A stretch of DNA of 52,768 bases from a virus: the IMG/VR virus record IMGVR_UViG_3300045988_047893, one strand, 5' to 3'. Shown here piece after piece: positions 1 through 52,768 of the stretch. Within the stretch, counting starts at the first letter, position 1; each line of letters begins with the position of its first letter. The notes beneath the pieces were generated by a model, which saw only the letters and a list, made by a program, of their open reading frames with translations, was not told the origin of the DNA and did no database searches. Position numbers and translations under genes: made by a program.

Positions 1-55
1 TATGGGGCGGGGCCGCTTTGTTTGAGCGGTGCGACCCTGCCAGGGCATCCGCTTG
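1..55. repeat. Terminal overlap, identical to 52714-52768 (circular assembly junction)
   Basis: Read directly: TATGGGGCGGGGCCGCTTTGTTTGAGCGGTGCGACCCTGCCAGGGCATCCGCTTG at both ends of the window. Confidence 0.95.
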
Positions 56-34739: not shown

Positions 34740-35150
34740 TTCTAGGCATTGAGCGCTGCAAGCAGGGCCGGACCCTGTATGTGCCGAGTTGAGTTTTCCA
34801 TGGAAGCCGGTACGGTCAGGAAATCAGCCGACCGACATAGCGGAATGGTGCTGTACAGCAGCGTCCTCCTTTCCGTTAAAGCCCGGTGCAAAACCGGGCT
34901 GCCATTTCCGCAAAAGCCGCACCCGCATGGAATCGACGGGAACGGGTGCGCCGCAGCATGAGCGTAGAAATGCCCTGTTCAATCCGCCCAGGAACAAAAG
35001 CGGTAGGCCATTGCCGTGGCCGCCCCGTCCGGTGCTCTCTTTGCCGGACGGGTATGATATGCGGACGCATAGAGGATGACCCTGCTTCTGACTATCCCCC
35101 ATGAGCAGGTGAGCCGGTTCGATACCGACCGTCCGTGCAAGAAAAGAAAT
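34740..35150 (+). ncRNA. Candidate structured non-coding RNA (class unknown)
   Basis: About 410 nt with no credible ORF, lying between a terminator and the next RBS. Perfect helices: 34880-87/34893-900 (GCAAA loop), 34918-25/34943-50, 35006-10/35017-21, 35024-32/35044-52, 35081-86/35104-09. Confidence 0.35.
35061..35139 (+). ncRNA. tRNA-like module (acceptor stem plus T-arm) at the 3' end of the structured region
   Basis: GCGGACG (35061-67) pairs with CGTCCGT (35130-36). T-arm is GCCGG-TTCGATA-CCGAC with one mismatch. There is no canonical D-arm, the central hairpin has a 17-nt loop, and no CCA is encoded. Confidence 0.3.
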
Positions 35151-35161
35151 GAGGAAAATGA

Positions 35162-35320
35162 ATGGAACTGGAATGCTTAACGCCGGAGTTTCCACAAGGA
35201 GCGAGAATTTACAGCGTGGACGGGGTGGCACCGTCGCTGCTCAATAGCGCTTCGGCCATGAGATCGCAAGGCTTTTTGGTCTGCGGGGGGGGGGGGCAGC
35301 ATGAAAATATGCGAAAGTAA
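35162..35320 (+). CDS. 52-aa ORF encoding a C5-MTase TRD-like fragment, ending just after the G12 tract
   Basis: GAGGAAAA RBS. MELECLTPEFPQGARIYSVDGVAPSLLNSASAMRSQGFLVCGGGG... A G11 tract would fuse it in frame to ORF 35301. Confidence 0.4.
   Translation: MELECLTPEFPQGARIYSVDGVAPSLLNSASAMRSQGFLVCGGGGQHENMRK
35285..35296 (+). repeat. Poly-G tract (G12) followed by CAGCATG
   Basis: Counted directly. Confidence 0.95.
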
Positions 35321-36854
35321 GCCGGTGATTTGCAGAGCGTCAGGGCAGGCATCGGCTGATACGCTGGATAACACCTGCCCTTGTCTGACGTGTGACCATG
35401 AAGCACCTATTGTTGCCGGATCATACTGCTTGGCGGGGAATATGATAGACCGCAACACCGGGATGAACGGCACGGGAGTAGACGAGAATGTGACATTCAC
35501 GCTGAACACCGTTGACCGTCACGCGGTAGCCTATGACGCAAGGCACCATTGCCTGAACGGCAATGTGAGCGGAACATTGCAGGCTAAAGGGGAAGGCGGA
35601 TGGAGCCTGAACTACATAAATCCGGTAATTCAACCGTTGCCGGAAGCAACCGGAGCGGATACCTATAATGGAACTGTTACCGGAGAGGTGGCGGCAACGC
35701 TTACAAAAGTGAACGGCGTAGCAACGAGTGGACCAAAAGTGATTCAAGCCGGCGAAAAGGGTTCACCGGACTGGATTGTCCGCCGTCTTATCCCATTGGA
35801 ATGCGGCCGATTGCAGGGCTTCCCTGATGGGTGGGCAGAAATCGCACCGCTGACCTCTCCACAAGAGTTTCCATTCTGGCGTGAAGTATATGCCAGAGAT
35901 TGCGAAATCAAAGGGAAAAGACCGAGCAGAAAAATTGTGCAGGGTGGCAGCACTGAAAGCGACAAGGCATTGATGCGCTGGCATGACGGCCTGCATAGCA
36001 TGGCAGCAGAGTATGCCATGTGGGGCAATGGTATGGCGTTGCCGAACGCACTGTTCTTTGTCAAAAATGCTTTCCGGGAACTGGGCAAACCAGCCGAGGA
36101 CGTGAAGTTGGGAAGCCTGTTTGACGGCAGCGGAACGATGCCGCTGTGCGCGGTAATGTGCGGCGGACGGGCAGTATGGGCAAGTGAGGTGGAGCCGTAC
36201 CCTATTGCCGTCACGAGAACGCACCTGCCGCATATGAAGCACCTAGGAAGCGTGAAGGATGTCCGGGGAGACAAAATCGAGCCAGTAGATATTATTACGT
36301 TCGGATCTCCTTGCCAGGACTTGAGCATTGCTGGAAAACGCGCCGGCCTGGGTGGCGGAAGATCTGGGCTATTCTGGGAAGCAATCAGAATCATCATAGA
36401 AATGCTGGTTGCAACAAATGGCAAATATCCGCGCTTTGTGATCTGGGAAAATGTGCCCGGTGCACTTTCGTCAAATGGAGGGAAGGATTTTGAAACGGTC
36501 CTCAATGAACTACTTCGTATCAGAGGATTTGCCGGAGGTAGAGCAGATAAGCCTATTCTCCAACATGGCAAGTGGGGGGGCTTCGCAAACTACGGAGCTG
36601 TTGCCTATCGAATCGTCAATGCTCAATACTGGGGAATCCCCCAGCGCAGGCGCAGAGTATATGCTGCCTGCGATACTCGTAGAGAATCCGCCGGAGTGGT
36701 CGCTTTTGAGCGAAAAGGCACTCAATGGGATTTTAACCCGTGCATCCCGAAGGGGGAAGAAATTGCCGGACTTACTGCTGACTGCTATTCATGGCATGAT
36801 CGAATGGTGGCATCGAGGCCAGCGGGGGGGGGCAGCATGGAGCCTACACCGTGA
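35301..36854 (+). CDS. DNA (cytosine-5) methyltransferase with permuted motif order (IX-X-I-IV-VI-VIII)
   Basis: RRLIPLECGRLQGFPDGW (aa 160-178) and MWGNGMALPNALFF (aa 240-253) precede SLFDGSGT (aa 272), FGSPCQDLSIAGKR (aa 334), VIWENVPG (aa 380) and NAQYWGIPQRRRR (aa 440). Confidence 0.7.
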   Translation: MKICESKPVICRASGQASADTLDNTCPCLTCDHEAPIVAGSYCLAGNMIDRNTGMNGTGVDENVTFTLNTVDRHAVAYDARHHCLNGNVSGTLQAKGEGGWSLNYINPVIQPLPEATGADTYNGTVTGEVAATLTKVNGVATSGPKVIQAGEKGSPDWIVRRLIPLECGRLQGFPDGWAEIAPLTSPQEFPFWREVYARDCEIKGKRPSRKIVQGGSTESDKALMRWHDGLHSMAAEYAMWGNGMALPNALFFVKNAFRELGKPAEDVKLGSLFDGSGTMPLCAVMCGGRAVWASEVEPYPIAVTRTHLPHMKHLGSVKDVRGDKIEPVDIITFGSPCQDLSIAGKRAGLGGGRSGLFWEAIRIIIEMLVATNGKYPRFVIWENVPGALSSNGGKDFETVLNELLRIRGFAGGRADKPILQHGKWGGFANYGAVAYRIVNAQYWGIPQRRRRVYAACDTRRESAGVVAFERKGTQWDFNPCIPKGEEIAGLTADCYSWHDRMVASRPAGGGSMEPTP

Positions 36855-37090
36855 AGATCCGGTCAGGGTGTGAGGGTGGCGGAAAAGGAGCACTTGTTCA
36901 GAAAGAACTTTCTGCAACACTGGCGACACATCAGGATCAAACGCTTTTTGAGCTGAGAAATATGGTACTGAATGACCAAGGCGGAGGAAGAATGAGCGTC
37001 ACGCAGGGAACGTCCGGGACGCTCAGAGCGCAGGAGCATGGGCATCCGCCAATTACTTTTGACAAGATGGGAGGAACGGAAAAAACATGA
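36640..37090 (+). pseudogene. C5-MTase downstream segments lying in two other frames
   Basis: Frame of ORF 36451-36873 encodes LSEKALNGILTRASRRGKKLPDLL. Frame of ORF 36851-37090 encodes KIRSGCEGGGKGALVQKELSATL..LNDQGGGRMSVTQGTSGTLRAQEHGH. From memory, both are segment types seen in long Firmicutes C5-MTases. Confidence 0.45.
36824..36832 (+). repeat. Poly-G tract (G9) followed by CAGCATG
   Basis: Counted directly. Starts 1539 nt (3 x 513) after the start of the G12 tract. Confidence 0.95.
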
Positions 37091-47126: not shown

Positions 47127-47194
47127 CCCCGGCGGGCTACCGGGAAGATGGGGCGGGGCTGCTTTACGGTGCCTGCCCTGCCAGAACTTCCGGG
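47127..47194. repeat. Intergenic two-hairpin repeat R1 (degenerate)
   Basis: CCCGG..CCGGG, then GGGGCGGGGCTGC-TTTACGGT-GCCTGCCCTGCC. Confidence 0.6.
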
Positions 47195-47616: not shown

Positions 47617-47693
47617 TTCCCGACGTAAATGCCGGGAAGATGGGGCGGGGTTGCTTTGTCCGGTGCAGCCCTGCCAAAATATCCGGTTTCGTG
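47617..47693. repeat. Intergenic two-hairpin repeat R2
   Basis: TTCCCG..CGGGAA, then GGGGCGGGGTTGC-TTTGTCCGGT-GCAGCCCTGCC-AAAATATCCGG-TTTCGTG. It abuts the stop codon of the 47694 gene. Confidence 0.8.
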
Positions 47694-49350: not shown

Positions 49351-49424
49351 GCCCGGCGGAATGCTGGGCGGTGGGGCGGGGCCGCTTTGTCCGGTGCGGC
49401 CCTGCCAGGGCATCCGGTTTCGTG
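49351..49424. repeat. Intergenic two-hairpin repeat R3
   Basis: GCCCGGC..GCTGGGC, then GGGGCGGGGCCGC-TTTGTCCGGT-GCGGCCCTGCC-AGGGCATCCGG-TTTCGTG. It abuts the stop codon at 49425. Confidence 0.8.
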
Positions 49425-50255: not shown

Positions 50256-50329
50256 CCCGGTGCGCTGCCGGGGTAGTGGGGCGGGGTTGCTTTGCCCGGT
50301 GCAGCCCTGCCAAAATATCCGGTTTCGTG
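50256..50329. repeat. Intergenic two-hairpin repeat R4
   Basis: CCCGG..CCGGG, then GGGGCGGGGTTGC-TTTGCCCGGT-GCAGCCCTGCC-AAAATATCCGG-TTTCGTG. Confidence 0.8.
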
Positions 50330-51234: not shown

Positions 51235-51298
51235 CCCGGCGGCTGCCGGGGTAGTGGGGCGGGGCTGCTTTGCGGTGCAACCCTGCTAGAGTGTCCGG
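51235..51298. repeat. Intergenic two-hairpin repeat R5
   Basis: CCCGGC-GGCT-GCCGGG, then GGGGCGGGGCTGC-TTTGCGGT-GCAACCCTGC. Confidence 0.75.
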
Positions 51299-52016: not shown

Positions 52017-52082
52017 CCCGGCGGCTGCCGGGGTAGTGGGGCGGGGCCGCTTTGTCCGGTGCGGCTCTGCCAGGGCATCCGG
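52017..52082. repeat. Intergenic two-hairpin repeat R6
   Basis: CCCGGC-GGCT-GCCGGG, then GGGGCGGGGCCGC-TTTGTCCGGT-GCGGCTCTGCC-AGGGCATCCGG. Confidence 0.8.
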
Positions 52083-52693: not shown

Positions 52694-52768
52694 CCCCGGC
52701 GGGCTGCCGGGGTTATGGGGCGGGGCCGCTTTGTTTGAGCGGTGCGACCCTGCCAGGGCATCCGCTTG
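52694..52768. repeat. Intergenic two-hairpin repeat R7 (continues across the junction; same bases as 1-55)
   Basis: CCCCGGC-GGGCT-GCCGGGG, then GGGGCGGGGCCGC-TTTGTTTGAGCGGT-GCGACCCTGCC-AGGGCATCCGC. Confidence 0.8.
52714..52768. repeat. Terminal overlap, identical to 1-55
   Basis: Exact 55-nt identity with the window start. Confidence 0.95.

Follow-up and report, generated by a model that had tools for sequence, protein, structure and literature searches.

What can be made from a gene whose parts lie in different reading frames, and why do its catalytic motifs follow an unusual order? Both questions are raised by a cytosine-5 methyltransferase (C5-MTase) locus at positions 35,162 to 37,090 of a viral DNA of 52,768 nucleotides (nt), the IMG/VR record IMGVR_UViG_3300045988_047893, which is referred to here, over its whole length, as the window. 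The locus probably encodes an orphan C5-MTase of a temperate Toutatis-like Faecalibacterium phage, permuted in its motif order and subject to slipped-strand phase variation. The full-length form, which is likely to be about 642 amino acids (aa) long, would contain an N-terminal segment (x), four target recognition domain (TRD)-like modules, the motifs IX, X, I, II, III, IV, VI and VIII, and a C-terminal segment (y). These parts and three poly-G tracts (T1, T2 and T3) are located in the window as follows.

35162-35284, plus strand: segment x, TRD-like, where the full-length protein actually begins (MELECLTPEFPQGARIYSVDGVAPSLLNSASAMRSQGFLVC); a ribosome-binding site (RBS; GAGGAAAA) lies upstream
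35285-35296, plus strand: tract T1, G12, then CAGCATG; x joins the body if the total length is 11 or 14
35301-36854, plus strand: main open reading frame (ORF), with four TRD-like modules ahead of motif IX; it terminates seven codons past T3
35781-35834, plus strand: motif IX (RRLIPLECGRLQGFPDGW; consensus RxLTxxExxRLQGFP), ORF residues 161-178
36018-36059, plus strand: motif X (MWGNGMALP; consensus GNxxxxP), ORF residues 240-253
36108-36137, plus strand: motif I (LFDGSGT; consensus FxGxG)
36300-36320, plus strand: motif IV (GSPCQD), PCQ with the catalytic cysteine
36444-36461, plus strand: motif VI (WENVPG), ENV
36574-36580, plus strand: tract T2, G7, in frame, between motifs VI and VIII
36624-36656, plus strand: motif VIII (QRRRR; consensus QxRxR)
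36824-36832, plus strand: tract T3, G9, then CAGCATG
36833-37090, plus strand: segment y, C-terminal TRD-like modules (QHGAYTVKIRSGCEGGGKGALVQ...ITFDKMGGTEKT), with the stop codon at 37088-37090

The main ORF encodes 517 aa and reads, in order, TRD-like modules and motifs IX, X, I, IV, VI and VIII. Motifs I, IV, VI and VIII share one common frame, as in other C5-MTases, and motifs IX and X of the family are both present in the same ORF. Pfam reports a match to PF00145 with E = 2.6e-33, in which ORF residues 269-456 align with profile positions 2-159, together with a second matched stretch; the ORF thus carries the N-terminal half of the family model in its own C-terminal half. Motif X precedes motif I in a single polypeptide, with a 16-aa linker between them, and this order, which is that of the M.BssHII class of permuted enzymes, is kept in relatives. 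The permuted order had been proposed in a preliminary description of this DNA and is confirmed by the motif order, the Pfam match and the conservation in relatives. Segment x, which starts with MELECLTPEFPQGARIYSVDGVAPSL..., lies in the window in a frame that differs from that of the body, and its ATG and RBS are conserved in every clade. Segment y, which begins with AYTVKIRSGCEGGGKGALVQ..., is in frame +2 relative to the main ORF. Repeated modules of the form '...G..s.TL...' are visible by reading, and their internal similarity is weak.

The three tracts are the only G or C runs of at least 7 nt in the window, all of them with G on the coding strand and within 1.9 kb. T2 is absent from the preliminary description, which had listed only G12 and G9, each followed by CAGCATG, with their starts 1539 nt apart; these values were confirmed by reading. 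The spacing of exactly 513 codons that it stressed holds in the window and does not stand as a fixed geometry, as it depends on the current tract length: the distance between the starts of T1 and T3 is 1538 or 1540 nt in near-identical loci, and 1531 or 1430 nt in other clades. Tract length within the coding sequence sets the frame, as checked by translation and with database proteins, which is the behavior of genes that vary in phase through simple sequence repeats (SSRs). At T2, G8 gives a truncated protein, and G6 or G9 leads into the +1 frame with loss of motif VIII. At T3, G10 or G7 carries the motif-VIII frame into y, G8 carries into y a second reading that we call the +1 block (see below), and G9 does neither. 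With T1 out of frame (G12), T2 in frame (G7) and T3 out of frame (G9), the window allele gives the 517-aa core without x and y. Public proteins correspond to these joins: 642 aa with x and y fused (P0002), 596 aa with y fused (P0001) and 517 aa (P0066). Protein clusters of 505-517, 593-597 and 635-644 aa match the frame joins exactly, and x-fused proteins are represented by P0002 and P0005. The frame joins that had been predicted at the G12 and G9 tracts are thus borne out, and the earlier suggestion of slipped-strand variable termini gains support from relatives, in which every predicted fusion occurs.

The nearest cultured relative is the Faecalibacterium phage FP_Toutatis (MG711466), at ~70% nucleotide identity, and both share a gene neighborhood composed of an HD-domain gene, a conserved non-coding stretch, the MTase and a 3D-domain gene. 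Genome matches are a 53 kb contig of a Faecalibacterium metagenome-assembled genome (100% clade) and a prophage of F. prausnitzii APC923/61-1 (81% clade), and near-identical gut-metagenome sequences number in the thousands in the protein database. A set of 62 viral loci was recovered, with best-segment identities of 99-100%, 80-84% and 63-68% and a few fragments between these groups. The positions of the tracts are fixed across clades, and their lengths differ even between near-identical genomes and cultured isolates: G6-G15 at T1, at times Gn followed by A1-A6; G6, G7 or G8 at T2, with G9 in Toutatis and G14 in the phage Lelie; and G6-G11 at T3. In the 66%-identity clade a second tract is located 80 nt before T3, in place of the T2 position. 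Seven sequences that are 96.7-99.4% identical over 4 kb carry at least four length alleles each at T1 and T3 and two at T2, with just three other indels over the same 4 kb; such length polymorphism among otherwise near-identical genomes is again that of SSR phase-variable genes. Toutatis and Lelie are cultured phages 97.9% identical to each other, and their T2 tracts differ by 5 nt. The APC923/61-1 prophage, which comes from an isolate, is OFF at T2. At T3, the motif-VIII frame runs into y in 29 of 56 loci, compared with ~19 expected by chance, the +1 block runs into y in 12 of the 56, and neither does in the remaining 15.

In the 100% clade, T1 is often a G run followed by an A run (G9A4, G9A6, G10A4 and G15A; L003:2484, L007:2482, L008:2483 and L067:2981). 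These GnAm forms are either two neighboring homopolymers that both vary or an artefact of sequencing past long G runs.

Substitutions were counted by codon position between the window and an 81% relative, each segment being read in its own frame. The counts at positions 1, 2 and 3 are 6, 1 and 19 in segment x; 51, 31 and 147 in the part from the TRD-like modules to motif X; 21, 18 and 72 in the part from motif I to motif VIII; and 11, 9 and 43 in segment y. Segment x, the body, the catalytic half and y are each under purifying selection in their own frame. The strong excess at third positions in every segment indicates that all parts are translated often enough to be kept, and it rules against the decaying mosaic that had been offered as one reading of the locus.

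In the scheme that we infer, which extends to enzyme activity, the rate of switching, a role of x and y in specificity and a benefit to the phage, the three poly-G tracts at the part junctions would change length by slipped-strand mispairing in replication, each genome representing one of many frame combinations. T2, placed within the catalytic half, would act as an ON/OFF switch of the core, whereas T1 and T3 would determine whether x and y, the terminal modules, are joined to it. Every clade has an ATG or GTG 4-8 nt past T1 in the frame of the body; the body would be made without x from this start codon, and the G run of T1 may double as its Shine-Dalgarno (SD) site. As variable-region modules are present at both ends, frameshifts there would trim modules while motifs IX and X are retained, and the outcome would be a switch of isoform or specificity, not plain inactivation. 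The likely benefit would be that methylation of the phage DNA is varied as a bet-hedge against restriction systems of the host and nucleases that depend on methylation.

The same anatomy could arise by other routes. In the first of these, RNA polymerase or the ribosome would undergo programmed slippage at the G runs, one genotype yielding several isoforms in fixed ratios (with or without x, with or without y, by path A or path B), and the DNA length differences would be secondary. The tracts are conserved at junctions where both frames are open and conserved, and in most genomes at least one tract breaks the frame while all segments are still under purifying selection, as such a process would predict. 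However, DNA lengths differ among near-identical genomes, which is enough alone to account for them, neither a stimulatory structure nor a heptamer was identified, and bacterial transcriptional slippage is documented mostly at A/T runs. Programmed slippage is on balance unlikely, and it could coexist with phase variation at the DNA level. A second alternative, to which we assign a still smaller chance, is that a single fixed 642-aa ORF with Gly-rich linkers encoded by the G runs has been obscured by homopolymer errors. The relatives are mostly metagenome assemblies, and the GnAm variants and some G25-G27 runs at contig ends (L015) do look technical; against this, the short T2 alleles G6, G7 and G8 vary although they are within the reliable Illumina range, isolate genomes are 5 nt apart, the GGG-only coding of glycine is kept at the same three sites in clades of 64-100% identity, and a further tract is found in a second MTase gene of relatives. 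The preliminary description had read the spacing of G12 and G9 as the geometry expected of a trimmed tandem duplication, and a recent origin of this kind with the duplicated junction at the two tracts, like a pair of adjacent truncated pseudogenes in decay, is largely refuted and hardly credible, since the MTase-like pieces in three frames and the 16-18-nt identity at the two tracts (GC-Gn-CAGCATG) that could suggest it are set against flanks that are otherwise unrelated, x and y segments that are not duplicates of their neighbors and have no significant similarity to the segments that they would duplicate, a spacing and tract contexts that are not conserved between clades (CAGCGGG, CAACGTG, CGA-Gn-CAG), and an architecture kept down to 64% identity with purifying selection in every segment.

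Several observations weigh against slipped-strand variation of a modular enzyme, the reading preferred here. The share of loci with T1 in frame, 22 of 57, is about the chance level; given this, x may be dispensable or seldom needed. Fully in-frame genotypes are rare (2 of ~30). Part of the length differences between assemblies are possibly homopolymer miscalls, chiefly the GnAm forms at T1. Segments x and y are termed TRD-like from their pattern and position, and x had no match in a profile search of the PDB. Finally, an AlphaFold2 prediction of the 642-aa form from a 20-sequence alignment gave a mean predicted local distance difference test score (pLDDT) of 29.5 and was uninformative.

How old is the permutation? 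The order x, T1, TRD modules, IX, X, I-VIII, T3, y is found in 62 of the 62 viral loci, and the two Faecalibacterium genomes keep the permuted order as well. In a search of 1.84 billion representative proteins, the order of the window appears in ~12 of the 150 best clusters at 50% identity, nested among conventional ones; most of these 150 clusters are conventional, with motif I at residue 1-10. This distribution indicates that the permuted order is ancient and common to several clades. In conventional relatives, x-like modules are found ~55 aa after motif VIII, and y adjoins the post-VIII region in these as well as in Toutatis-type relatives. As the counterparts of both x and y follow motif VIII in conventional relatives, the break lies inside the variable region, which is where the enzymes of the M.BssHII class are broken. 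A 2018 survey of REBASE found that all the natural permuted C5-MTases then known (M.BssHII, M.Alw26I, M2.Eco31I, M.Esp3I, M2.BsaI and 22 others) were broken in the variable region, and that no natural C5-MTase was permuted outside it (PMC5944983).

A second permutation is present in the Toutatis MTase (L001:4423-5834), which starts at motif III and ends with X-I-II, so that its break lies between motifs II and III. Enzymes of this type start with M[KI]HLGD... and end with ...LGSLFDGIGG...WASEIE.FPIAVT, and their X-to-I junction is as in the window's gene. This arrangement was found in at least eight diverse intact clusters of 494-698 aa (P0149, P0156, P0166, P0169, P0176, P0182, P0217 and P0218). 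An ancient origin of the family by duplication and trimming is still plausible, with this sister permutation sharing the X-to-I junction.

The frame that follows motif VIII raises a further question, as two readings of the same DNA are open there.

36451-36873, plus strand: embedded +1 ORF, 140 aa in the window, with the last ~57 codons dual-coded
36654-36823, plus strand: dual-coded segment, AEYMLPAILVENPPEWSLLSEKALNGILTRASRRGKKLPDLLLTAIHGMIEWW in frame +1 and ...VYAACDTRRESAGVVAFERKG... in frame 0, both open

Third-position variation follows frame 0 up to motif VIII, frame +1 in the dual-coded segment and frame +2 in y, and the substitution density in the dual-coded segment is about half that of its flanks. 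The +1 block, with the consensus L..iLe..vP.rYyLS.KAC.GIL.RA..RGKkLP..L, was found by tblastn in 54 phage records. In Streptococcus phage Javan191, Vibrio phage K459 and P1 dmt it occupies the +1 frame within the annotated coding sequence (CDS) of a conventional MTase; the Toutatis MTase gene also has it in the +1 frame. Coordinates of the block elsewhere are L064:1801-1926, L065:2501-2647 and L066:1801-1914, with further copies in L069-L148. In 80 further viral loci, taken out of at least 585 matches, the block is always +1 relative to motif VIII, and the distance from the Gln codon to its start is 67 nt in 79 loci and 64 nt in the other. Frame 0 is stop-free in all 76 distinct sequences, and the wobble signature is that of frame +1. 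Four divergent genes (Javan191, Vibrio K459, P1 dmt and the window) have 19-39 stops in the +1 frame, where a single run of 135-165 codons, at this location, is open. A conserved ORF in an alternative frame is thus present inside the MTase gene, as is the case for M.EcoHK31I.

Regarding its initiation, 58 of 75 sequences carry a +1 ATG that lies 53 nt ahead of the tryptophan codon of WENV, and an SD-like motif precedes this ATG in 43 of the 58. The Asn/Asp codon that gives the +1 ATG ends in T in 58 of 61 cases, compared with 28 of 62 at a control Asp codon. In many lineages, a conserved +1 ATG with an SD-like site lies ~100 codons upstream of the block. Two other starts were considered and rejected: a candidate ATG just upstream of the block, which depends on how an Asp codon is spelled (GAT in 28 sequences, GAC in 34), and an ATG inside ENV, where the Asn codon is AAC in 55 of 79. 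The +1 frame looks like an embedded, separately initiated ORF, which would extend from motif V/VI to ~55 codons past motif VIII, over ~140-165 codons. Proteins that join the +1 reading to both y and the N-terminal part are also on record (P0005 and P0013).

The nature of the block was addressed by profile comparisons. No match was found in Pfam with any of the four versions tried, a profile search of the PDB gave nothing significant, and PHROGs gave just a weak match to a small 'DNA methyltransferase' family. The possibility that the block resembles motif IX was rejected, as hhalign gave no match between them. Aligned to E. coli Dcm by hhalign, the block falls at Dcm 310-337, the place expected of a post-VIII segment, with a non-significant E = 0.11, and the PF00145 score of a Vibrio MTase is unchanged when its frame-0 segment is swapped for the block. 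In the window's clade, T2 and T3 bracket the dual-coded segment. The chances seem to us evenly balanced that these tracts evolved at its borders, their length picking the conventional or the hidden reading. The wider proposal suggested by these sequence patterns, that phage C5-MTase genes of this superfamily contain a hidden, independently selected +1 frame and that in the Faecalibacterium phage clade the tracts choose between the two readings, forming with the permuted order and its TRD modules at each terminus a combinatorial switch of isoform or specificity in place of an ON/OFF gene, has in our estimate about the same prospects of being right as of being wrong. No account of phase-variable MTases in Faecalibacterium phages or of an embedded +1 frame was found in the literature, the coverage of which was incomplete, and the conserved embedded frame may be a new finding.

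The P1 dmt gene (OP279344, L065:808-3849) appears to contain an intein-like insertion within its PCQ motif (GGTPC/FTAGHM...VVHN/CQAFSIAG, where slashes mark its borders).

Upstream of the MTase, the non-coding DNA contains a candidate leader RNA.

34950-35150, plus strand: structured RNA candidate of ~200 nt, ending ~12 nt ahead of the RBS and start codon (ATG) of x

In an alignment of 30 relatives, RNAalifold gives 55 pairs for this candidate. Compensatory double changes occur at 21 of these, and G-U pairs that are conserved favor the plus strand. Its 3' part is tRNA-like, with an 8-bp closing stem and a T-arm-like hairpin (GCCGGTTCGATACCGAC); no match was found in Rfam, and no tRNA or tmRNA was detected by ARAGORN. 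Its position suggests a link to the MTase. A counterpart is found in Toutatis at L001:3985-4205. An extra T at position 35040, in the leader region, is unique to the window among the seven near-identical sequences.

Two other features lie outside the gene. A second MTase gene, MT-A70-like and with a DPPW motif, is located ~1.6 kb downstream of T3 and has a G8-G10 tract in the 66% clade and in L052 (L036:5501, L046:5908 and L052:4868), in frame in some cases and out of frame in others; the window has no such tract. In addition, Rfam reports eight minus-strand matches to RF02685 (RAGATH-5, listed as a ribozyme) between minus-strand ORFs.

47142-47193, 47634-47686, 49365-49417, 50270-50322, 51248-51298, 52030-52082, 52709-52765 and 1-52, minus strand: RF02685 matches

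The copies at both ends of the window suggest a circular or terminally redundant genome.

How does this system compare with those already described? Orphan multispecific C5-MTases of Bacillus phages (SPR, phi3T, rho11s) have several TRD-like modules in a long variable region; unlike the window's enzyme, they have the conventional motif order and lack G tracts. The natural permuted C5-MTases of the M.BssHII class likewise have motifs IX and X before I-VIII (PMC5944983), a likeness of motif order and break position. These are bacterial restriction-modification enzymes, whereas the window's is an orphan phage or prophage enzyme, with TRD-like modules at both termini that are bounded by hypermutable G tracts. 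The phages Toutatis (MG711466) and Lelie (PP479942) carry their MTase in the same slot, between an HD-domain gene followed by a structured RNA and a 3D-domain gene, and a poly-G at the T2 position likewise causes a frameshift, the gene being annotated as two CDSs; their enzyme, in contrast, has the other permutation point, from a start at III to an end at X-I-II, and lacks T1 and T3.

DNA MTases that vary in phase through poly-G or other SSRs are known in Campylobacter, Helicobacter and Neisseria (PMC4889913, PMC6321876), and SSR-driven C-terminal switching has been described in Helicobacter canadensis (PMC2823697). In those systems, too, G tracts in the coding sequence change length, so that expression is switched or the C-terminal sequence is swapped, a likeness that for the window is drawn from tract differences between genomes. 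The window differs in having three tracts in one phage C5-MTase, at the module junctions of a permuted enzyme, in a gut Firmicute host lineage and in a phage gene, not a chromosomal restriction-modification system. As for the second frame, the alpha gene of M.EcoHK31I encodes the beta chain in another of its frames (PMC2836561), and both cases share a second conserved frame embedded in a C5-MTase gene. The beta chain supplies motif IX, whereas the main frame of the window has its own, the +1 product is a predicted one, and its block showed no similarity to motif IX.

Permuted C5-MTases are rare, and those known come from bacterial restriction-modification systems; here, prophages of a bacterium dominant in the human gut commonly carry a permuted form. 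Two permutations with one X-to-I junction provide a natural test of the duplication-and-trimming model. The +1 block, if translated, would be an unannotated gene or isoform in a widely studied gene class that includes P1 dmt. The three conserved hypermutable tracts, together with the one in the second MTase of relatives, suggest that phage DNA methylation varies stochastically, which would be a plausible counter-move to restriction-modification and methylation-dependent defenses.

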